From a virus: a stretch of 64,000 bases of DNA. Shown in pieces: positions 8,896 through 54,401 of the stretch (its first letter is position 1; the number at the start of each line of letters is the position of its first letter). A program made the position numbers and the translations under genes. The notes below the pieces were generated by a model. It had not been told where the DNA came from, did not search any database, and saw only the letters and a list, made by a program, of their open reading frames with translations. Where the stretch lies: positions 1 through 64,000 of the IMG/VR virus record IMGVR_UViG_3300042309_002578. One strand, 5' to 3'.

Positions 8896-10467
8896 TTATC
8901 TCAACATTTGCAGAATGTTCTCGGTTTCGCTTTCTGAACTTGCGTTGGCAACACCATCGCGGATATTTTGGCGAACCCAGCCCAAAAACTGACTTGTACT
9001 ATCAATACTGTCTTTTACTCCCTTGGGAAAATTAAATAAATCCCTCTCGTATTCTGCTAACCAGGGAGAATCATACGGATGATGTACACGCTTGTTCTCG
9101 TAAGCTGTAGCCTCGACCTCCATTCTAACTTCTTTGTTTTGTTTCGGAATTATGCCAACTATCCAGGAATCAATTTTGATTATTTTTTCCCCACCATCTA
9201 AAATTATAGGTTTTCTTGCCTCTTGAATAAGGCTTGAGCCAGTAGATTTATCTTCTATCAAAATGACATCCGGCAAGAAGGAATCGTACAAACTACAGAA
9301 TGCTCTTTTGCCCTTCACATAATCAAATTTTCCAATAAAACTGTGAATTAAATAATAGTCTCGATCATAGCTTTCACCCCAGGTTGTGCAAGCCCAATTG
9401 TCGTTCTCTGTTTTGTCTTTTTGGGCTGTGTCCCAACTTTGTATAATTCTTTTTAATGCCGGTAAGTTTTTGTACCTTACAATCCATTCTGGCGAAACAA
9501 TACCACCGGAAGCAGGGACTGGTCGCTGTTGATGTCTACCTGCGAACTTGTAAGAACCAAGGACTTTTTGAGCATCTTTGACTTTTGACCAACCAAAACG
9601 CTCCTCATGTAAAAGAGTTCCTTTTTTTCTGTCAACATACCTGCCAGACATTGGGAATATAATCCGCTGGTCTTCCTCGGCTATAGTTGGTAAGCATAAG
9701 TGGGTGTATCCCCCGATTTCTGCCAACGTATGCCCTGAAATATCTTTATCGTGTAATCTTTGCATAACCGTTATAATTCCCCCTTTGTTGGGGTCATTAA
9801 GCCGCGTTCCGACGACATCATCAAACTCAGAGACAGTTCCTTCGCGCACATTGTCAGATTCCAATTCTTCGGGGTGATGAGGGTCATCAACAATAATGCG
9901 ATCGCCCCCTTCCCCAAGAACAGTTCCTCCAAACGATGAGGCAAACATTTGACCCTGGAAGTTGTTGGAAAATTCAGTTTTAAGGTTGTTGTCGCCACTT
10001 AACTCGAATTTGTGTCCCCACAAACTCTGAAACCAGTTTGATCTAATGATCGTTCTGCGCTTCAAATTATGCTTCACGCTCAATCTTGATGAGTATGACA
10101 AGCACAAATATCTAAGCGTGGGATCTGATAACCATTCCCAAACAGGAAAATTAATCGTAACAATAATGCTTTTAAGGTGTCTTGGTGCTATATTTATTAA
10201 TAATTTATTAATATGCCCTTTGTTAAAATACTCTAAGTATTCGCATATAGCCTCTTGATGCCAATTTAAATATATGTCTTTCCCTGGCTCAATTACGTGC
10301 CAAGATGCCTTAAAAAACTCATACAATGAACTTTCATAAAGAAGCTTTTTCTCTTCTGTTTGCGGGTCTTTTACGGTTTGATAATTATTTTTAATATAAA
10401 CATCACAATTCTTCTGAAGCTTGTTTAGTTGCGTAAAATGGTCAAAGTTAGGGGTTATTGTTTTCAT
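8896..10467 (-). CDS. terL: phage terminase large subunit
   Basis: INIAPRHLKS (Walker A variant), IIVDDPH (Walker B), MQRLHDKD, QSWDTA, IEDKSTG, FPKG.KDSIDSTSQ nuclease motifs. Confidence 0.95.
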   Translation of the reverse strand: MKTITPNFDHFTQLNKLQKNCDVYIKNNYQTVKDPQTEEKKLLYESSLYEFFKASWHVIEPGKDIYLNWHQEAICEYLEYFNKGHINKLLINIAPRHLKSIIVTINFPVWEWLSDPTLRYLCLSYSSRLSVKHNLKRRTIIRSNWFQSLWGHKFELSGDNNLKTEFSNNFQGQMFASSFGGTVLGEGGDRIIVDDPHHPEELESDNVREGTVSEFDDVVGTRLNDPNKGGIITVMQRLHDKDISGHTLAEIGGYTHLCLPTIAEEDQRIIFPMSGRYVDRKKGTLLHEERFGWSKVKDAQKVLGSYKFAGRHQQRPVPASGGIVSPEWIVRYKNLPALKRIIQSWDTAQKDKTENDNWACTTWGESYDRDYYLIHSFIGKFDYVKGKRAFCSLYDSFLPDVILIEDKSTGSSLIQEARKPIILDGGEKIIKIDSWIVGIIPKQNKEVRMEVEATAYENKRVHHPYDSPWLAEYERDLFNFPKGVKDSIDSTSQFLGWVRQNIRDGVANASSESETENILQMLR

Positions 10468-14664: not shown

Positions 14665-17600
14665 ATGAAAAATAATCAAATTGTTAATTATTTTGGTGGA
14701 TTAGAAGGCGAATTTACAATAGAAATTAAAGACGCTAAAACTCTTGAGGTTCGGCAAACTATTACACAGAAAAATACAATTACTGATCGTTTCATAAATG
14801 AAGCTTATACCGCTAGACATAGTACATACGCAAATGAATACATTGGTTATGGAGGAATAATATTGCCTTGGCTAACCTCACTTAATATTTCTTTTTCCAC
14901 AGAAGCACCTGGGAATGGGAAGCGTAGTTTATTTTGGATTGGTAACTTTATTGGGACTGCGAGTACGGATACCGTTAACATTGGTCCAAAAACTAATTAT
15001 ATTGATTTCAATAATGATGGAATAGTTGAAGAAATAACAATATCACAAAGACTGGGATTTGTGGGATCTTTGTATCCCTCCAACATTGCTTTTGACCGAT
15101 TTTTCAGAACGATAGCATTAACTAACATCGCTTCAGCAATTGATCACACAGCCGCTCAAGCTAACAGTGGAACATCTGGTGCTATATGGGCTTATATAGA
15201 TATTGGCTCTAACATCCAGCAGAAAAAGAATGAAATCATTGACGTTACTTACCGAATCAGGCTTCCTAGCAGTTACTCTGGCTATAACAATGTTCCTGCT
15301 ATTTCCCAAGACATGATTTATGCCATAAATAGAGCGAATGGATTTTCGTGGAACTCAACTTTTTATACATCTATCCGCAACTTTGTTTTCCCGCTACTTT
15401 ATGGCAATTTTAAAGAGGCAAATAAGTCTTGCCTTAACTTTTTTGTATATGGGGATGGTGTACGCAAATTTAGCGATGATTCTGAGGAAGTTCATACACA
15501 GGCGTATGGTGCAGCTCGATATGATTTTGTCGCTTCAGTGCCAAATACAAAATCGGTAGGCAGATATTACACGATGATAGGGACTGGATATCAAGCAGAA
15601 CCGTCAAGAGATCGAATTGCCGGGAGAACTGTAAGTAAACTATTTGGCAGCATTAATTATCAATCTACATCCACGCCGTTCCAAAATATGTTTTCACATG
15701 GGAATAGTGCCACATTACCTTTCCAAGATAGCAACAACTTGGCTAGTGGCAGTGGAAAACCAAATATACAAGGCTCTTGGGCGGATAATTTTCCCGAACT
15801 TTACAGAATTGAGATCCTAAACTCTGGCTCTATAGGTACTGCTACTTATGTTTTTCAAAGAAGCAGAGTGACACATTTCAACGACAATGCTTTTAATTAC
15901 ATAGAACTAGCAACAATCTTTACCCACCAAAATAATCTTGCAAACGGAAAGCCTTATCCCAGATATCATGCTGGCACGGGAGAGACAACTCATGATATTG
16001 CCTACAGTAAAACTCAAATTATCAGACATGACAGTACAGGGATAAGCATAATAAATCTTGTCAATGGAGATCACCAGGATTGGGACTCCAGCACACAACC
16101 TTCCTTGCCTGTCACAGCACTTCGTCATGTGGAATTTGTTCTGGCGACTGGGAAAATATATGCGGCCTGTGACAATACCGGATTATGGGAAATAACGCCT
16201 GGAAATTCCTCAGCAGTTATTAATTTGGTCACTACAGGGTGTCGAAGTGTTAGTGCTGGATTCTCTAATATTCTGTACGCATTATTTTGGGATGGAGCAA
16301 TTTTCACCCTGCGAAATAGCCAAGACTGGAACACAAATTTAACTTTCACATTCCCTCTATCAAACCTCAACTCAAGCGACAATCGATCTCTTTGGTTTAT
16401 CACTGCCGACAAATCAGCACCCAATAGAATAGCTCTATTCGGCACTCAATCAAATAACAACGCACTTGTATGGTGGTGGACTTTATCTGGTGGTATTGCC
16501 AACGGATACGGATTTGGTGTTGCTGGAGCAACTAATACAAATGCTTTGTCGCTACGGCAAGCTTCGCCCAAATATCTCGTTTCCTCTCCTAAAGGACAAT
16601 GGTATAGCGCAAGCATCCCCACCCCTACGTGGACACACTCAGGGATACTTCTCACTTTTGGTACAACAACTAGCGAATGGATTGTCAACAATGATTTCGA
16701 TTCAAGTGGCTTGCTAGGAGATACTCCGATATTGGACGAGAATGGGTATCTCTTGTCGGGTAAATTCATTAAAGAAGGGAAAACAACTCTATTTCAGCAC
16801 CAGACAGAGGTAGACAGTAGATACAACAGTATATGGGATAGTGTTTGCTGGTTGGGCGATGGACTATTTTTTGGATCGAAAAAGGATAAAAGCGGTGACT
16901 ATATATACAAATATGGCAACGCAAACAGAATAACAGGAATTACTGGTGCAGGAATAAACACGAGCAATGTATTTAATCCCTTTGTGTGGGAGACATTCCA
17001 CTGGAATCCGGGGACTTCGTCCTGGGTGTCGGCAGATCCAACATGGAATGGCACGGCATGGGTTCAAGCTACTAGAACTGGCAAGCCGACTCATGCAGCA
17101 ACGGAAACCTTGATTGATGGACTAACTATTAATTTCACAGAATTGGGTAATTTAGGCTTTGTTTCTGGGAATTGGTACACTCAGGTGGTTTGCTTGGGTG
17201 TACTAAAAGACAATATCAACAATGTATCAATTAAAGCATCAACATACTTGCGCCCAACGGAATTAATAACGGTATCTGAAACTCTTACCATTTCTACAGC
17301 AGAACCTTATTCTGCAATAGTGAGCAAATCTTCTGCCGGTGGTTCTAACCCAGATCCTTCTTTTAGATGGCTTGATGTAGAAGTTATTCCTATCTCTGCC
17401 CAAATATCAGGCTATGGAACTCCAGCGACAGTCCGCACCAATGATGCTATTGTCCCAGCAATTAACGAAATCGTGGTGAATGGATCTACCGGAACTTTAA
17501 TCTGTAACTCTGCGGACGCTGGTAAAACAATAACCATTCCTCAGTACATGATTGTTAAAGGCGATGAACCACGAATAGCCCCAGCGCAAGCCACTTTTGC

Positions 17601-18282
17601 AAACGTCTACAGACCTGTATTGCTACTACGCCATGATACTGGGGTGATTGTTGACGCTGGGAATATTGTCACTCGTTGGAATGATCAGAGTGGATACGGA
17701 AATGACGTTGTTGCTCCCACAGGTCAAAATCCAACATCGGATGGGACTGCTTTGCGAAGAGGTCTGCCGACAATCAGGTTTACGGACAATCACAAAAGGC
17801 TTGTTTTGCCTGATTCAAGCCCAATTGACATATCTCGTGGATTTACCTGCGTTGCGGTTATTAATCGCACGAACGGAAGAGCATTTCAATACATTTTGAC
17901 GCTAGGGAATCTAGCTGTGTTTGGGTTTGTTTATAATAGTTTATTACTAGCGAATTACGGTGCGAATAACCAGCAATATAATCTATTCAAAGAATACGGA
18001 AAAAATGGGACTTGGGCTGTTGTTTCGGCAACTTTTAACCCTAATACTGGGAAAGCGTCACTAAGAGTCGACAGTGTGAATATTGGATCGGAACTACACC
18101 CTTCTTACACAGGCAGAGGCTTTGGTAATCGTGTTGGCAGCCAGGGATACCAATGTATTGGCGGAGATGGTGTAAATGATCGCACATTTATCGGGAATAT
18201 GAGTTTCTTGGCTGCCTATAATAATTACATGACTACACCAGAATTAAAAGCCGTAGAACAGGCTGCATTAGCGATCGCATAA
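14665..18282 (+). CDS. large tail/receptor-binding protein with C-terminal LamG-like domain
   Basis: 1205 aa, S/T/G/N-rich; VTRWNDQSGYGND and FIGNMSFLAAYN LamG-like motifs. Confidence 0.7.
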   Translation: MKNNQIVNYFGGLEGEFTIEIKDAKTLEVRQTITQKNTITDRFINEAYTARHSTYANEYIGYGGIILPWLTSLNISFSTEAPGNGKRSLFWIGNFIGTASTDTVNIGPKTNYIDFNNDGIVEEITISQRLGFVGSLYPSNIAFDRFFRTIALTNIASAIDHTAAQANSGTSGAIWAYIDIGSNIQQKKNEIIDVTYRIRLPSSYSGYNNVPAISQDMIYAINRANGFSWNSTFYTSIRNFVFPLLYGNFKEANKSCLNFFVYGDGVRKFSDDSEEVHTQAYGAARYDFVASVPNTKSVGRYYTMIGTGYQAEPSRDRIAGRTVSKLFGSINYQSTSTPFQNMFSHGNSATLPFQDSNNLASGSGKPNIQGSWADNFPELYRIEILNSGSIGTATYVFQRSRVTHFNDNAFNYIELATIFTHQNNLANGKPYPRYHAGTGETTHDIAYSKTQIIRHDSTGISIINLVNGDHQDWDSSTQPSLPVTALRHVEFVLATGKIYAACDNTGLWEITPGNSSAVINLVTTGCRSVSAGFSNILYALFWDGAIFTLRNSQDWNTNLTFTFPLSNLNSSDNRSLWFITADKSAPNRIALFGTQSNNNALVWWWTLSGGIANGYGFGVAGATNTNALSLRQASPKYLVSSPKGQWYSASIPTPTWTHSGILLTFGTTTSEWIVNNDFDSSGLLGDTPILDENGYLLSGKFIKEGKTTLFQHQTEVDSRYNSIWDSVCWLGDGLFFGSKKDKSGDYIYKYGNANRITGITGAGINTSNVFNPFVWETFHWNPGTSSWVSADPTWNGTAWVQATRTGKPTHAATETLIDGLTINFTELGNLGFVSGNWYTQVVCLGVLKDNINNVSIKASTYLRPTELITVSETLTISTAEPYSAIVSKSSAGGSNPDPSFRWLDVEVIPISAQISGYGTPATVRTNDAIVPAINEIVVNGSTGTLICNSADAGKTITIPQYMIVKGDEPRIAPAQATFANVYRPVLLLRHDTGVIVDAGNIVTRWNDQSGYGNDVVAPTGQNPTSDGTALRRGLPTIRFTDNHKRLVLPDSSPIDISRGFTCVAVINRTNGRAFQYILTLGNLAVFGFVYNSLLLANYGANNQQYNLFKEYGKNGTWAVVSATFNPNTGKASLRVDSVNIGSELHPSYTGRGFGNRVGSQGYQCIGGDGVNDRTFIGNMSFLAAYNNYMTTPELKAVEQAALAIA

Positions 18283-41965: not shown

Positions 41966-42946
41966 ATTTGTACTCACACCACGTCAACGCCCAGCACCAT
42001 CGGTAAAAAAGCCCGACGGATGCCACCCTTGGCGACAAAAACATATTGTAATCCCCGCACAGCAAGGGTTTCGTGTTTTTGGCAATATTCCCCCGCAGCC
42101 GTCCCCCAAGCCGCAAACCAACCATTTGCACCAACGCCCTAACAACGCCCGTGCCACCAGCTAAAAACCTAAAATCTGCCCAGTCTTGGCGATAAAAACA
42201 TATTGCAATATCCGCACAGCAAGGGTTTTGTGTTTTTAGCGATCGCTCCCCCGCAGCCGTCCCCCAAGCCGCAAACCAACCATTTGCACCAATGCCCTAA
42301 CAACGCCCGTGCCACCAGCTAAAAACCTAAAATCTGTCCAGCCTTGGCGACAAAAAACATATTGCAATATCCGCACAGCAAGGGTTTTGTGTTTTTAGCG
42401 ATCGCTCCCCCGCAGCCGTCCTCAAAGTCATAAACCAACCATTTGCACCAACACCCTGACAACGCCCGTGCCACCAGCTAAAAACCTAAAATCTGTCCAG
42501 CCTTGGCGACAAAAAACATATTGCAATATCCGCACAGCAAGGGTTTTGTGTTTTGGCAATATTCCCCCGCAGCCGTCTCCAAACCGGCAAAACAGACATT
42601 CGTTCTCAGCCTGGACTAACGTCGATAAAATCAAAATCTTGTAACACGCCTCAAACCCGCATTCTCTCGTTAAAAAATCTGTGGCGGATTATAACATAAG
42701 GTGTGTCAAAAGTAAAGGGAAGATACAAAGAAAAAAGGGCAGTTTCCTATAAGAAAGTGATCATCTTCCCAATTTTATTTTTGATTAAAATCAAAAAATT
42801 ATGCAAGTACGCACCTATATCCAAAATTTCTGTAATACGTTTGTAATATAAAAATAAATCAAAAATGCGCTTGACTTTATTTGTTAACCATAGTAATATA
42901 TATTCAGTAAAGAAAAACAAAATACAAAACAAGCGAGAAAAAGATG
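41966..42946 (+). repeat. dispersed repeat module copy C (half unit, four units, core, promoter and RBS)
   Basis: CATATTG at 42042, 42199, 42358 and 42517; core from 42635. Confidence 0.95.
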
Positions 42947-43162
42947 ACTAAGCCATTTGCAAATCTGGAAACCACCGAAAAGAACCACACTGCCGAGTAT
43001 GGAATCCGAATTAAATCTATAGTAATGTGGGAAATAAGGACGGAAATTTTGTTTGTGTATGTAGCTGGAGTTGCAGAACCAGTAGCTTTTTATGTTAACG
43101 AGTCTGTCGAGCTAATAGCCGAACTTAGGAAACAAAGCGAAGACTTTAGACCTCAAAAGTAG
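42944..43162 (+). CDS. small hypothetical protein
   Basis: Downstream of promoter 42871-42899. Confidence 0.65.
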   Translation: MTKPFANLETTEKNHTAEYGIRIKSIVMWEIRTEILFVYVAGVAEPVAFYVNESVELIAELRKQSEDFRPQK

Positions 43163-44149: not shown

Positions 44150-44746
44150 TTGTCGGTAGAACATATTGCAATCTAGCCACAGCAAGGCTTTTGTGTTTTA
44201 GCGATATTTCCCCCGCAGCCGCACCAAAATTATAAAACGAGCATTTGTACTCACACCACGTCAACGCCCAGCACCATCGGCAAAAAAGCCCGACGGATGC
44301 CCAGTCTTGTTACAAAAACATATTGTAATCCCCACATAACAAGGCTTCTGTCTTTGGGTCGGCTGCGGGGAGACATTCCCAAAATCATAAAGCGGATATT
44401 CGTTCCCAGTTTTGGATAATGCCCCATAAAACTAAAATCTTGTAACACGCCTCAAACCCCTATTTTACTGTTAAAAATTTGGGGCGGATTATATCATAGT
44501 GAGCGTACCAAAGTCAAGGGAAGATGTGAAATAAAAATGGCATTTCCTTAAAGAAACAATGCACATCTTCCCAAATATTTTTTCCTTTTTTATAAAAATA
44601 TTATGCAAGTACGCACCTAGATAAAAAACCTGTAATACGCCTGTAATATACAAAATGATTTTCAAATACCGCTTGACTTTATTTGTTAACCACAGTATTA
44701 TAAGTGAAGTAGAAAAAACAAAACACAAAACAAGCGAGAAAAAATG
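44150..44746 (+). repeat. dispersed repeat module copy D (two units plus divergent core)
   Basis: CATATTG at 44162 and 44319; core from 44436. Confidence 0.9.
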
Positions 44747-45133
44747 ACAATCAATAAATACTATTTTAATAGACAGCGAGTTGAATCCGCGTTGGCGGAT
44801 CTTGAACGGAATAAAAACCTCAAACTAGAGCAAGCCCGATTAAATGGGTGGGAAGTGGAGGTTTTGTCCAAGTGTGGACTGACGACTTGGAGGAAGAAGT
44901 TTGGGTTCTTCGTCCTGTCACAAGACATGGTTGGGCAAAAAGGATTGTCCACGTTCGACATTCCAGATCGAACGTGGGTGATCAACACGAATTTCAGGGA
45001 TCTATCTGATCTAGAAAGAGATGGATGGATTTCATCGGAAAAAGAAGCTGCGCTTCAATCTGCACTTCTTAGACCAGCAAGACGAACCACCTATCAATCT
45101 GCACTTCTTAGACCAGCAAGACGAACCACCTAG
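44744..45133 (+). CDS. hypothetical protein with a 39-bp terminal duplication
   Basis: Downstream of promoter 44673; 45055-45093 is repeated at 45094-45132. Confidence 0.65.
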   Translation: MTINKYYFNRQRVESALADLERNKNLKLEQARLNGWEVEVLSKCGLTTWRKKFGFFVLSQDMVGQKGLSTFDIPDRTWVINTNFRDLSDLERDGWISSEKEAALQSALLRPARRTTYQSALLRPARRTT

Positions 45134-48298: not shown

Positions 48299-48663
48299 TC
48301 TGCAAAGCCAATGGTTCACTATAAAAAATCAACAAGAAGGAGAAAACAAAAGGGCTAAAATTGTAAGAACGGAATTTGTGTCTGTTTGGGGTAGAGATGA
48401 GGAAGTCCTAGTTTCTGAATTGCCACCCCAAACCCAAGAGGCTATAAAGCGGTCTGACGACTTTTGGACACAGATGAATACCTTAGAAGAAGCCGGAGAC
48501 ACTGAGGGGATTCACAACCTTTGTGAATCACATTCTGCTAATCAGTAAACTTTTTTTTTGATGGTTTTTAGTCTTCAAGACTTGGGGATTTCTCAGATGT
48601 CCCAAACATAAGTCAGACATACAGAACTTTAGTGATTAAATTTATGTGCAAATAACAAAAAAT

Positions 48664-49248
48664 ATGAACACAAAAACAGAAATCAAAAATCAAAGATGGA
48701 TTGATTTTTCTTTGAGAATGGCTAAAACCTGTTATCGCCACTCACAAAGACCGTCCTTAGAGTGGATAATTAGCAGCATCAACGCTGTTTTTGAAACCAT
48801 CCACGATGACTTGAGCCTCTACGAATCCTGGGATAATGTTTTGCCATATTCCCCGAACGATAAAATATACACATGGAAGAGGTATAACAAAGATAAGCCA
48901 GAATACCCCGTTTATCTCTCCACAGTATTGAGTGAATGTATTGAGCAGGACATATATTGGAGTCCATACGAACACGCCAACAGAAGCCAGAAAAAGGTTA
49001 TAGATAAATACGGAGACTCTATGAGCGAGGAGGAGTATGACAGCCTCAAAGAAAGGATAGTGTCGGATTGGTCAAGTCCAGTTCATTGTTGCATAAGAGC
49101 GGGGATAGATGCAGCAAAAGGTGGTAGCTTTGGTGTTATTGGGTTTACATTTAGAAACATTCTAGATATGTATCCAGAGGGCTTGCCTGATTGGATAAAA
49201 GAAAATTTAGTAGAGGGGTTAAAACCCAAGGATTTTATTCTTTTGTAA
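48664..49248 (+). CDS. hypothetical protein
   Basis: About 194 aa; CCIRAGID motif. Confidence 0.7.
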   Translation: MNTKTEIKNQRWIDFSLRMAKTCYRHSQRPSLEWIISSINAVFETIHDDLSLYESWDNVLPYSPNDKIYTWKRYNKDKPEYPVYLSTVLSECIEQDIYWSPYEHANRSQKKVIDKYGDSMSEEEYDSLKERIVSDWSSPVHCCIRAGIDAAKGGSFGVIGFTFRNILDMYPEGLPDWIKENLVEGLKPKDFILL

Positions 49249-49336
49249 TTTACATCAATCAACGCAGTTTATATTTGCTATATTTTTATGTAAATACCCG
49301 CTATATTTAATTAAATGTAGCGCGTATTTACATTGA

Positions 49337-49616
49337 CTAAATATACCATTCAATAGGCTCGTATCCTATTTTGCTAACGATATCAAATGAGTTTTTGTTG
49401 ATTACTACCCAAGGCAGATTCAGTATTTCACAATCCTCGGTATATCGCTATTCTCCTTGTGCGCGATCGCTTTCTGGAATAATCTTCTTGGCTAATGAAG
49501 TGCCGTAAATGCACTCTAGCTTCTCTCGAAGATAGCTTTCGTTGTAGCCAAAAAATACTAGGTTTTGCCCACAATGAATATTGGCTTTCGTGAAGTCAAT
49601 ACCTTGGTCTAGGGTT
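49337..49616 (-). pseudogene. 3' part of a native gene split by the 1.7-kb insertion
   Basis: TLDQGIDFTKANIHCG...QGE*RYTEDC...EWYI* is in frame with 51288-51391. Confidence 0.7.
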
Positions 49617-49620
49617 ATCT

Positions 49621-49932
49621 TATGATCTTGAGGTTGATGAGTGGGATAACTTTGCTTTAGCTGCTGGTATCATTGTTCATAATTCTAAAGACATCTGTGA
49701 TGCAGTAGCGGTGGTAGCCTGGCACTTAATGAGCGACTTAAGCGCAGCTATACCTGGCACAGCTATAAGAACTGAGAGTAGAGAGGCTAGAATGAGTCCA
49801 GGTGATGCTAACTCTGATATAGCTTTTGGAGGAGCTGGGCGTGAACTAGCTGCACAGATAAAGACAGCTTATAAAGGCTGGGGTACTAGTAGAAATGATG
49901 GTGGAAGCTGGAGTGGAGATGATTACTTCTAG
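49621..49932 (+). pseudogene. C-terminal fragment of an intein-containing terminase large subunit
   Basis: YDLEVDEWDNFALAAGIIVHN/S intein end followed by SKDICDAVA nuclease motif. Confidence 0.75.
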
Positions 49933-50108
49933 TCTAGTTTTAGGGTGTTTAAGTCCCCTCTAACTGATCCACGTCGTATGAACTTTCTCACAACAATATT
50001 GTCTTTGTTAGTTTCCAAGAACTCTGCCAGGTAGTCAATATCAATTCTGGCAACGCTACCATCTTTGAGATGTACAGTTCCTTTAATGGTTTCTTCTTGT
50101 TCTTGCAT
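49929..50108 (-). CDS. small hypothetical protein (59 aa)
   Basis: MQEQEETIKGTVHLKDG...; translated by hand. Confidence 0.5.
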   Translation of the reverse strand: MQEQEETIKGTVHLKDGSVARIDIDYLAEFLETNKDNIVVRKFIRRGSVRGDLNTLKLD

Positions 50109-50130
50109 TAATACCAGCCTAGGTTTAAAA

Positions 50131-50204
50131 CTCCCCCGGCACGACTCGAACGTGCGGCATCGAAATTAACAGTTTCGCGCTCTAACCAACTGAGCTACAG
50201 GGGA
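50131..50204 (-). tRNA. tRNA-Asn(GTT)
   Basis: Cloverleaf: TCCCCTG/CGGGGGA, CGAAA-CTGTTAA-TTTCG, GCACG-TTCGAGT-CGTGC. Confidence 0.93.
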
Positions 50205-50225
50205 ATGACTTCTAGCTAACTAGAA

Positions 50226-50296
50226 CGAGGCTAGGGAGGATCGAACTCCCAACTTAAGATCGACAATCTTAGGGTTTACCATTAACCTATAGCCCC
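50226..50296 (-). tRNA. tRNA-Asp(GTC)
   Basis: GGGGCTA/TAGCCTC, TAAGA-TTGTCGA-TCTTA, GGGAG-TTCGATC-CTCCC. Confidence 0.9.
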
Positions 50297-50480
50297 TGTG
50301 CTTTCCCTTACACCACAAAGGATGCTAACGTTAAACTCCTAGTTGTTCAGGCATTGCTGCTAGGGTGAGAAAACTACCGGGCTTTATTCTGTTCACAGCT
50401 TTGCCATTCTGTGTCTACATTGGCTGCTGGCATGGAGCCACACAACTTCAGTGTAGTGCTGTTTTTCGTTATACGAGAAG

Positions 50481-50552
50481 TATCCCTGGAGAGGATCGAA
50501 CTCTCTTTGCTAGGATGAAAACCTAGTGAACTACCCAATGTTCGACAGGGAC
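50481..50552 (-). tRNA. tRNA-Glu(TTC)
   Basis: GTCCCTG/CAGGGAT, CTAGG-TTTTCAT-CCTAG, GAGAG-TTCGATC-CTCTC. Confidence 0.9.
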
Positions 50553-50609
50553 TTGTTGGCAGTAGAGAGAAGGTCAAGTGTATACCCTCTCGCTCCCTCC
50601 ACTAAAACT

Positions 50610-50638
50610 AGTGTAGCACAACTTTAACGAACTGTCAA
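50610..50638 (-). promoter_or_regulatory. promoter of the tRNA cluster
   Basis: TTGACA-17-TACACT on the minus strand. Confidence 0.65.
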
Positions 50639-50716
50639 CTTGATTGAGAAAGTTTTAGACTAGCTTTGCCCCAACTAGCCTAAAACGTATAACCTTCAAG
50701 GAGCATTTATGGGCAA

Positions 50717-50815
50717 TTAGTAGGGTTAGGAGTCGAACCTAACTTTCCTTGTGCCACCGCACTGTTCACGTCTAAACAGCACTAGACAAGAGCGTCTCCG
50801 ATCTGCCACCTACCA
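50717..50815 (-). tRNA. tRNA-like gene with a 26-nt anticodon-loop insertion (His-GTG or Thr-AGT)
   Basis: TGGTAGG/CCTACTA acceptor; CTTGT/ACAAG stem with a 33-nt loop; GTTAGG-TTCGACT-CCTAAC T arm. Confidence 0.6.
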
Positions 50816-50927
50816 ACCAGCTTACCTTTATACTGGGCGCATATACTCTCAGCGCGGACTATCCGTTCTGCTTAAAGCAAGGCGTTTTGCGGTCCCTTAG
50901 TCTTATTATAACTTAGTTGTTAAAAAC

Positions 50928-51287
50928 CTACCAACCTTGCATTTCTACTAGTTCCATACACAGGTCATTAATCTTGTTTTGGTTAGGGTGGTGGGGCAGT
51001 GTTGATTGCTCGTACACTACAATCATCTGGGCAAGCAGGTCTTCTGACAGTTGTTTTAGTTCCTCATAGGAGTAGTCGCCTTTTAAGATAGCCTTTAACT
51101 CAGCAGCATCACCAGCCAGGTTTCTGTCAACCAAGACTCCCTTACCCTGCAGAATCTCTACACCACCTTTTAACAATCTAATGCAGTGCATTCCGTGTTT
51201 AAGATCATAGCCAGCCAGCCGCTCCATACCAGCCCTAGCAGGGTTTCTATTCTTCTGCCAGGATAGATAAGCATTCCATTCTCTTAA
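50928..51287 (-). pseudogene. C-terminal fragment of a Pol-beta-superfamily (RlaP/Nuc-transf-like) nucleotidyltransferase
   Basis: NRNPARAGME..GYDLKHGMHCIRLL; N-terminus lost at the junction. Confidence 0.75.
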
Positions 51288-51391
51288 AGGGTTCTTGCCC
51301 TGACTTCGTTTGCCCAAAGGGCGAAATCATATCTGACAAGCGTATACTTTCCGAGAGTCCCCCGGTAGGTTTTTGTGTCTTGTACTGACAA
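51288..51391 (-). pseudogene. 5' part of the native gene split by the insertion
   Basis: (L/M)SVQDTKTYRGTLGKYTLVRYDFALWANEVRART. Confidence 0.65.
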
Positions 51392-51414
51392 CTTAATTGT
51401 AACACAATATTGAA

Positions 51415-51490
51415 GGCGAATCAATTCGCCCGTGTGCGTTTTCCCCTTCGGTCTGAAGACGCGAAGCTCCCAACGCTACCGCTTTCCTCT
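51415..51490 (-). mobile_element. IS200/IS605-like end remnant
   Basis: GGTAGCGTTGGGAGCTTCGCGTCTTCAGACCGAAGGGGAAAACGCACAC then hairpin GGCGAATTGATTCGCC; same layout as 21119. Confidence 0.5.
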
Positions 51491-51644
51491 TGGCGGACAA
51501 TCGCCACTAATTAAAACCAATATATTGTTTTTGTGTATCTAATATTTATTTAATATTGAATCAATATCACAAACAGGGCAAAAATAATGGTGAAATTTTT
51601 CACCATTATCAAAGTGTCTCTAGATTCTTAACTACCACCGACTA

Positions 51645-52142
51645 TTATAACAGCAAACTTTTAATTCTTGCCATCATTGCGCGATCGCATGAGTTTAGTT
51701 TACAGTCTGCAACTTTGCTTAGAAAAATATCATCTTCACCCCAGTTGTCGTAAATAATTTTATCGACAATCAGGACTAAATTAATGTCGTTTGAAATAAT
51801 CATATTGATTAGTTTCAGGTTGATTGAGTTGTTGCCAAGAACTAAAAAACCTTGTTTTAAATAACATTGTTCTCGAAGTGAAGCACTTGCCGAAGATATT
51901 CTTCTCCATGAGATTCCCGTTAAATATTCTAATTCATCTAAGGCGGTTTGGTATTTTTTATTGTTACCGCTTGGCGTTACATTATATACTCTTTTTAAAA
52001 TATATCTTGTTGGCGGTTTTTTCCCTTTTGAGTTTTTGTACTCAAGAATATTTTGCTCAATCAGAGCCTTTGCTGTTGTCTCGTTGTATTGTCCATTGAT
52101 AAACAATGTCTGAATTTTCCCAGCCTGTGTGGATCTTTTCAT
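51645..52142 (-). CDS. hypothetical protein
   Basis: 165-aa basic ORF. Confidence 0.6.
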   Translation of the reverse strand: MKRSTQAGKIQTLFINGQYNETTAKALIEQNILEYKNSKGKKPPTRYILKRVYNVTPSGNNKKYQTALDELEYLTGISWRRISSASASLREQCYLKQGFLVLGNNSINLKLINMIISNDINLVLIVDKIIYDNWGEDDIFLSKVADCKLNSCDRAMMARIKSLLL

Positions 52143-52604
52143 AAAAATTCTAAATAGATTAAACTGTGTTCAAAATATATTGTATATCATTCTGTTGCTA
52201 TTTATTTTAAAAAAATATTTTTTTTCTGGATAATTCTATAAATTAAAAATCAGTTGCGACACATCAAAAAGCATAAATTATATTTTATGGCTCGCGTCTA
52301 CATTTATTGTTGTGAGTTGCTGCAAATATTCGCAAAAGCGCACAACTCGCAAGCAACATATTTTATTTTGCGAAACGGCACAAATTTTGTGTCCATGTTT
52401 TTATTTTTTTGCACTTGGACTTTCAATTAAGATGCGCGATTCCAATTTTAGCAATATTTAATCAATATAAATACCATATTGATTTTACAAAATCAATATG
52501 GTAAAATCATGGAACAAAGTAGACTTTTGTACTTAGACGACGGACAAGAAGTTTATGTATAAAAAGCAAAACAAGACACAGTAAAAACACAATACAAAAA
52601 TACA

Positions 52605-53441: not shown

Positions 53442-53511
53442 TAATAAGCAAGAATTACAAGCAGCACCATAAATTAATTTTATGGTGCTGCTTGTTTATG
53501 TCTTTTGGGAG

Positions 53512-54375
53512 AAAAACATATTGTAATCCCCGCACAGCAAGGGTTTTGTGTTTTGGTAATATTTCCCCCGCAGCCGACCCAAAACTATAAACCAAACATT
53601 TGCACCAACACCCTAACAACGCCCCGTGTCATCGGCTAGAAAACCTAAAATCTGCTCAACTTTGGTGGTAAAAACATATTGCAATCCCCGCACAGTAATG
53701 GTTTCAGCTTTTGGTAATATTTCCCGCAGCCGTCCCCCACAACCCAAACATTTGTACCAACGCCCTAACAACGCCCGTGCCACCGGCTTAAAAACCTAAA
53801 ATCTGTCCAGCCTTGGCGACAAAAAACATATTGCAATATCCGCACAGCAAGGGTTTTGTGTTTTTAGCGATCGCTCCCCGCAGCCGTCCCCCCCAAGCCG
53901 CAAACCAACCATTTGCACCAACGCCCTACTAACGCCCGTGCCACCGGACATAAAACCTAAAATCTGTCCAGCCTTGGCGATAAAAACATATTGCAATCTC
54001 CGCACAGCAAGGGTTTTGTGTTTTTAGCGATCGCTCCCCGCAGCCGTCTCCAAACCGGCAAAACAGACATTCGTTCCCAGCCTGGGCTAACGCCGATAAA
54101 ATCCCAATCTTGTAACACGCCTCAAACCCGCATTCTCTCGTTAAAAAATCTGTGGCGGATTATAACATAAGGTGTGTCAAAAGTAAAGGGAAGATGCAAA
54201 GAAAAAAGGGCATTTTCCTATAAGAAAGTGATCATCTTCCCAATTTTATTTTTGATTAAAATCAAAAAATTATGCAAGTACGCACCTATGTCTAAAATTC
54301 TTGTAATACGTCTGTAATACAAAAATAAATTAAAAATGCGCTTTACTTTATTGGTTGTCCGCAGTAATATATATT
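53512..54375 (+). repeat. dispersed repeat module copy E (four units, core, promoter)
   Basis: CATATTG at 53517, 53675, 53827 and 53987; core from 54106. Confidence 0.95.
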
Positions 54376-54401
54376 TAAGTAGAGAAAAGAAGAGGTTAGT
54401 A

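Follow-up and report, generated by a model that had tools for sequence, protein, structure and literature searches.

The locus considered here lies at positions 49340–51497 of the virus record IMGVR_UViG_3300042309_002578 and holds a small tRNA cluster set among the C-terminal remnants of several genes. The window, that is, the whole stretch of DNA that was analysed, comprises bases 1–64000 of this 138,383-bp linear record (CheckV completeness estimate 83%); positions in the whole record are given as genome positions. The source of the record is a large freshwater cyanophage. It carries structural genes of the myovirus type (Mu-type portal, protease, scaffold, major head protein, sheath, and baseplate), its own replication genes (DNA polymerase III alpha, clamp-loader subunits, helicases, and RecJ), and an intact, intein-free large terminase gene at 8896–10467 on the minus strand (phrog_38, E 5e-80). 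The stretch 48800–52200 was present (at least 92% of sampled words) in 20 metagenome runs, belonging to 16 studies of fresh water or lakes, so the phage is abundant in nature. In the first-pass annotation, the segment between two copies of AGGGTT (at 49611–49616 and 51288–51293, where both are indeed present) was taken for one fragment of another phage captured at a staggered break within a single native gene.

Gene remnants and tRNA genes at the locus

Inside 2 kb (49340–51293) there are four C-terminal gene remnants, which are P0132-like, P0131-like, terminase, and nucleotidyltransferase (NTase) remnants, respectively (Table 1). The N-terminal parts of all four were looked for in the whole record, and none is present.

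Table 1. Features of the locus and repeat blocks of the record (strand as annotated; ORF, open reading frame).
Feature	Position	Strand	Remarks
Remnant B, C-terminal half of a small protein	49340–49447	−	Residues 41–78 of the 78-aa P0132, 63–65% identity
Remnant A, tail of a DUF7421-like gene	49448–49615	−	Last 55 codons (residues 115–169 of P0131) and natural TAG stop (49448–49450)
Left breakpoint	49616–49620		5 nt matching neither the P0131 nor the L092 side
3' fragment of a large-terminase gene of foreign origin	49621–49932	+	21 last intein residues, 81-residue C-extein, stop
ORF, 59 codons	49929–50108	−	No family match; unmatched in L092 and L093; L092 has tRNA-Pro at about this position
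tRNA-Asn(GTT)	50130–50205	−	ARAGORN and Rfam RF00005
tRNA-Asp(GTC)	50226–50296	−	ARAGORN and Rfam RF00005
Conserved spacer, ~180 nt	50297–50479	−	Between tRNA-Glu and tRNA-Asp
tRNA-Glu(TTC)	50480–50552	−	ARAGORN and Rfam RF00005
Promoter-like site TTGACA-17-TACACT with TG	50638–50610	−	Upstream of tRNA-Glu, kept in L093
tRNA-like element, ~100 nt	50717–50815	−	Kept in L092 and L093
RlaP/PF10127-type NTase, C-terminal ~120 codons	50928–51293 (ORF to 51317)	−	Cut near residue 243 of 362
Putative deletion joint	51289–51293		GGGTT occurs in the NTase sequence as well as at the left repeat edge
209-bp repeat	51289–51497	−	98.6% identical to genome 96133–96341, same orientation
Promoter-like site TTGATT-17-TACAAT with TG, in the 209-bp repeat	51424–51396	−	9 of 12 positions matched
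~158-bp repeat blocks	Window 41966–42950, 44150–44750, 53500–54390; genome 72300–72880, 80670–81870, 115800–116250

A full HMMER search against 1.84 billion representatives revealed 37 relatives of the left flank. The best of them, P0131 (169 amino acids, 84–85% identity), aligns by residues 114–169, its very end, to 49618–49451. Since the two termini coincide, the TAG at 49448–49450, previously ascribed to decay of an interrupted gene, falls exactly at the end of this homologue and is the natural stop. In the DUF7421-like family, the C-terminal half reads GIDFT..EKLECIYG, and the part retained here is preceded by a conserved N-terminal half (..FY..A...GNHAFIEF.GLMNEYIK.C..), whose GNHAFIEF..C signature was not found anywhere in the record. 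Remnant B has no in-frame start codon and begins directly after the TAG of remnant A.

The proposal of an insertion into a native gene was based on the fact that excision of 49613–51289 (1677 bp) joins two minus-strand frames, which it does as described. However, with a hidden Markov model of 27 homologues the left flank scores 69.1 bits (profile positions 59–116 of 130), and the domain in the joined frame scores the same 69.1 bits, while the right flank, like the second copy of the repeat located there, yields at most −2.2 bits in every frame. Judged by this profile, the left and right flanks do not form one gene, an outcome that the first-pass annotation itself had named as speaking against its model.

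The terminase remnant retains the end of an intein. The plus strand from 49621 encodes ...YDLEVDEWDNFALAAGIIVHN followed by S..., which represents the intein end (HN) and Ser+1, and the fragment matches positions 136–155 of 155 in PF14890 (intein splicing). With the C-termini of the intein-bearing large terminases P0003 (738 amino acids) and P0002 (1452 amino acids) it shares 94% identity, in agreement with the earlier suggestion that the segment starts in the interior of such a gene. Intein_splicing was found in both proteins, P0002 additionally contains LAGLIDADG and HNH, and both match terminase-large-subunit PHROGs; with its splicing block and C-extein, the fragment is of the intein-containing large terminase type (phrog_17415 / phrog_2). 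It corresponds to residues 637–738 of P0003, and nothing else of that terminase, including complete ATPase and nuclease domains, occurs in the 138-kb record. The native terminase is unrelated to it and belongs to another family. The first in-frame start of the fragment does not occur before 49711, and the tail, lacking a start codon, would therefore be an untranslated passenger. A split-intein or trans-splicing role was considered and rejected, given this late start and a native terminase that is intact and of another family. In the passages of PMC6293099 concerned with it, the intein of cyanophage vB_AphaS-CL131 is located in a dCTP deaminase and is not relevant to the terminase tail.

The tRNA-Asn, -Asp, and -Glu genes reported before were found again by ARAGORN and by Rfam. 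The tRNA-like gene and a promoter-like site, also reported before, are present as well and are conserved in other viral loci described below, the former in L092 and L093 and the latter in L093. The three tRNAs score 65.9, 64.4, and 55.4 bits with RF00005 (gathering score 29). For the tRNA-like element, which has no Rfam match, ARAGORN reports “His with a 26-nt intron” under the intron option only; compensatory changes were detected in 6 of its 32 predicted pairs, three of them in a T-arm-like stem.

The left breakpoint and the donor-type lineage

A search by terminase alignment resulted in ten viral donor-type loci. In L092 (a record of 196,877 bp, 94% complete) the terminase is 91% identical to the fragment (86% at the nucleotide level), and three collinear DNA matches cover 49620–49976 (86%), 50321–50480 (84%), and 50640–50890 (82%) of the window, homology stopping near 50890. 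Another locus, L093, matches 50557–50716 at 83%. In both, the full terminase is followed by convergent minus-strand tRNAs; L093 has nine of them (Pro, Asn, Asp, Ser, Ser, Arg, Glu, Trp, and Tyr) and then the same promoter region and tRNA-like element. The window shows this arrangement in reduced form (Asn, Asp, spacer, Glu, promoter, tRNA-like). In four whole donor-type records (two of them 91–94% complete), no match to the major capsid protein or terminase of the present phage, or to P0131, was found.

Comparison at this level indicates that the block from 49621 to about 50890 (~1.3 kb) is derived from another, unrelated cyanophage lineage. The notion of a “fragment of another phage” holds for this block, with its DNA match of 82–86% to L092 and L093, but not for a single 1677-bp piece. 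Since the donor type has a full terminase gene and only its last 103 codons occur here, the present phage would be the recipient.

The transition from resident to foreign sequence is sharp. P0131 homology reaches 49615 and L092 homology begins at 49620/49621. Contigs from four metagenome runs of four separate studies were used for checking the junctions, and the left junction is spanned by contigs in all four, which means that it is real. In the left-flank gene, the AGGGT(T) at 49611–49616 specifies Thr-Leu, and it is situated 4–5 nt outside the breakpoint, where L092 has unrelated sequence and no AGGGTT. The hexamer is also frequent locally: the window has 38 copies (29 ± 5 in shuffles), five plus-strand copies lie within 49611–51293, and random pairs of points share a 6-mer in 8% of trials within ±10 bp and in 1.3% within ±5 bp.

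The spacer at 50297–50479 has 84% identity in L092 and is partly kept in L093, although the surrounding tRNA genes differ, and compensatory changes occur in 2 of its 42 predicted pairs; it may be a structured RNA. When 50130–50552 is compared with L093 12425–13354, the intergenic scaffolds are 83–95% identical and the Asn, Asp, and Glu genes only 58–70%, which suggests that tRNA genes were exchanged within a conserved frame. At genome 70067–70216, a 50-codon stretch of a TnpA-like ORF of L092 is matched at 70% identity. The corresponding L092 region (16333–18085) contains a 423-aa TnpB-like and a 133-aa TnpA-like ORF, which, judged from their sequences, would be an IS200/IS605-like pair.

The right joint and the 209-bp repeat

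The NTase fragment corresponds to positions 234–332 of 351 in phrog_388 and is identical to the full-length P0010 (362 amino acids) from LREW onward. Only residues ~243–362 are present in the record; the N-terminal catalytic nucleotidyltransferase domain (~240 residues), present in P0010, is missing from it. A tblastn search with the NTase matched 217 phage records, and the cluster of P0010 contains 21 members on contigs of up to 210,902 bp. Among genome contigs P0010 found only host homologues (at most 80% identity), the matches in 389 genomes of the family of G001 reached only ~73%, and of the four donor-type records one gave a partial match of 31% and nothing better was seen.

In all four runs, the contig containing the left flank and the block passes 51293 into one common sequence, which continues for 682 to 2680 letters more and is not the repeat. 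This sequence, absent from the record, keeps the NTase frame open: its minus strand reads ..RLLQKSQGYH before NPLREW, in agreement with P0010 (..RLLQKSQGYHNALREW..). The earlier statement that the segment ends in the middle of an NTase is thus accurate as to the C-terminal fragment but not as to a capture boundary, since the gene continues past 51293 in four of four runs.

The arrangement in the record diverges from these contigs exactly at the left edge of the 209-bp repeat, which coincides with the right junction of the first-pass annotation. The minus-strand sequence is ..CAGGGCAAGAACCC at the end of the repeat and ..CAGGGCTACCACAACCC in the NTase gene; both carry AACCC (GGGTT on the plus strand), so the joint lies inside a shared 5-bp microhomology. 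From this, the right joint reads as a microhomology deletion joint and not as a duplication. The two AGGGTT copies are accordingly a coincidence on the left and deletion microhomology on the right, and not a target-site duplication or the trace of a staggered break.

The repeat has two copies in the record. In copy 2, the second promoter hexamer reads TATAAT, and the ..ANEVRART frame stops after two more codons. No Rfam family was matched by either copy, and an exact 34-mer of the repeat was not found in viral contigs. Three runs contain a 300-bp contig with 205 bp of the repeat and 95 bp of the copy-2 left flank, unbroken, and in run contigs the right end of the repeat is continued by one or the other right flank. 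These contigs point to an undeleted form in which at least about 300 bp are common to the two copies, the 209 bp being what remained after the deletion.

The far end of the 95 bp (genome ~96038) is the start of thymidylate kinase homology (Pfam profile position 12). The thymidylate kinase gene itself (genome 95466–96062; L002:837-1430, minus strand) lies directly downstream of repeat copy 2 and has no P-loop start. The repeat was also considered as a group I intron upstream of two 5'-truncated genes, the NTase and, at copy 2, the thymidylate kinase. This was rejected: neither copy gave anything above chance in Rfam, the folding z-scores were −1.4 and −1.9, and the record as a whole contains no P-loop exon of a thymidylate kinase.

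Explanations of the locus and comparison with known systems

We consider it likely that the locus represents a mosaic joint with an adjacent later deletion, i.e., two separate events in which no transposon took part. In the first event, a mixed infection would have allowed the import of ~1.3 kb from the unrelated cyanophage lineage, presumably by non-homologous recombination. The left crossover would have fallen within the terminase intein, of which the last 21 codons were retained, and would have cut off the front of a small resident gene. The functional gain would be the tRNA cluster (Asn, Asp, Glu, and the tRNA-like RNA) with its own conserved promoter, TTGACA-17-TACACT, from which the set is probably transcribed. 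The tRNAs seem to be the only plausibly useful content of the segment, and selection for them may explain its retention. In the second event, a deletion would have extended from about NTase codon 243 to GGGTT in the promoter-bearing repeat, removing at least about 2.7 kb and leaving 209 bp of the repeat, while the NTase stays full-length in most of the population. The deletion variant would thereby have lost the catalytic domain of the NTase and acquired a second promoter, about 100 nt upstream of the NTase remnant and the tRNAs.

Capture of a single 1677-bp fragment at a staggered break in one gene, with duplication of AGGGTT, explains the presence of this hexamer at both places and the open frame obtained by excision, and DFALWANE of the right flank bears a faint local likeness to EFxGLMNE of the DUF7421-like family. 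Nevertheless, we regard it as very improbable. Joining the flanks brings no gain in the profile score, the H, F, G, and C residues that hardly vary among family members fail to align, and the right flank belongs to a repeat, in the second copy of which the same frame meets a stop after two codons. The segment leads into the NTase gene and not into the right flank in all runs, and AGGGTT, common locally, does not occur at the breakpoint in the donor type. Alternatively, the tail of the terminase gene and the tRNA block might be vertical leftovers of a former packaging module of the L092 type that was later replaced, a view to which the richness of the region in C-terminal remnants lends something. 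It is improbable because, outside the block, the only other similarity found between the record and the ten donor-type loci is a 150-bp transposase-like stretch, and the capsid and terminase proteins gave no match in the four whole donor-type records searched; the high identity of the block against this near-absence of similarity elsewhere fits a recent transfer.

The right joint (51289–51293) demands a separate judgement, as it might be an artefact of assembly or binning in a genome with a full NTase. Contigs in all runs enter the full-length NTase sequence, the repeat is found on separate 300-bp contigs attached to the copy-2 flank, and repeats are classic places of mis-joining. On the other hand, the exact 99-aa truncated ORF occurs on five contigs from two source databases (NCBI and JGI), and neither a full-length gene nor a contig-end fragment would yield it. 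In addition, the joint resembles a microhomology deletion, with CAGGGC..AACCC on both partners, and an overlap of 5 bp alone cannot create a join in a k-mer assembler. Since this ORF is obtainable only from the truncated arrangement, we rate a real deletion variant above an artefact: the former is quite likely, the latter unlikely but deserving some weight.

Some data weigh against the reading as a mosaic joint followed by a deletion. None of the contigs listed for the four runs carries the NTase-to-repeat joint, although this is not taken as a sign of its absence from them; the joint is seen in the record itself and in the five contigs with the 99-aa ORF, and these are perhaps not independent. 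Deletion size and collinearity are inferred, and the undeleted variant is known from 30 letters; this 30-letter run-on consensus was not found in viral or metagenome contigs, nor was a 37-mer from the end of the NTase sequence in the window found in metagenome contigs. On the donor side, the tRNA genes are identical to those of L093 at only 44 of 76, 44 of 71, and 51 of 73 positions, which places the true donor outside the loci compared and implies remodelling of the cluster, and 49977–50320 is unmatched in both L092 and L093. A close relative bearing an empty site was sought, and none was found. The search for such relatives gave only a 31% match with RecJ and relatives of 41–50% with P0131 as the query, with no further shared sequence detected; the flank proteins at 48646–49248 and 51645–52142 had no relatives among the viral contigs searched.

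One further idea, which we find rather unlikely, is that the spacer and the tRNA-like element, 82–84% conserved in unrelated cyanophages, are new structured RNAs that travel with phage tRNA clusters and cooperate with the RlaP-type RNA-repair NTase as a tRNA-mimic/repair module. If so, the block would have been retained for more than its three tRNAs.

Other features of the record are noted here for completeness. Dispersed and tandem repeats of ~158 bp form a large family (70–92% identical) in several intergenic blocks. Among the tail genes, genome 126156–127757 encodes a 533-aa protein whose C-terminal domain is an ADP-ribosyltransferase (PF03496, E 5e-10). At its extreme end (genome 138215–138383), the record has an exact tandem duplication of 85 bp, which could result from the ending of the assembly or belong to a terminal repeat.

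Compared with known systems, the locus resembles the insertion of a transposon or insertion sequence with target-site duplication in having short identical direct repeats near both ends of a foreign-looking segment. It differs in the lack of terminal inverted repeats (the ends were searched) and of a transposase or recombinase (no family match for the ORFs of the segment), both noted already in the first-pass annotation, in repeats that lie off the true breakpoints, in flanks that do not form one gene, and in a right end that probably arose by later deletion. This is a caution of general use: short direct repeats together with a “restored” frame can mimic target-site duplication where a flank is a repeat and a boundary is a later deletion.

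Like the PeSL cassettes, the 209-bp repeat is non-coding, carries a promoter, occurs more than once, and marks both the edge of a variable segment and an insertion/deletion joint. In the relevant part of PMC2839356, PeSLs are defined by a strong sigma-70-like promoter and a terminator stem-loop, with many copies bordering variable genes. Here, there are two copies only, the phage is not T4-like, and the joint lies at a 5-bp microhomology on the cassette edge and did not apparently result from cassette–cassette recombination. No convincing terminator stem-loop was found on the promoter strand of the 209-bp repeat, which does not possess the features that define a PeSL-type cassette. The coexistence of the full form in the population with one that has lost non-essential genes is similar to the situation in cyanophage S-PM2d, where such variants arise spontaneously by deletion in flexible regions. 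However, as far as the consulted sections of PMC4503421 describe it, that case was followed in culture with fitness measured, while ours is deduced from one record and five contigs set against the contigs of four runs.

The closest parallel is offered by phage mosaicism, which the consulted parts of PMC2327257 and PMC3945230 attribute to illegitimate or relaxed (homeologous) recombination between co-infecting phages. The locus shares with those cases a sharp joint without homology or site-specific machinery, gene fragments at the joint, and unrelated phages that share hosts; it differs from the examples presented there in a breakpoint inside an intein-coding stretch, a cargo consisting of a tRNA cluster, and a recombination pathway that is deduced from sequence. 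It offers a cleanly resolved case of a large cyanophage gaining a tRNA cluster from an unrelated phage, in which a breakpoint within an intein-coding region is combined with an adjacent natural deletion polymorphism. The process is ordinary phage mosaicism by non-homologous recombination, and no new mechanism of mobility is revealed by it.

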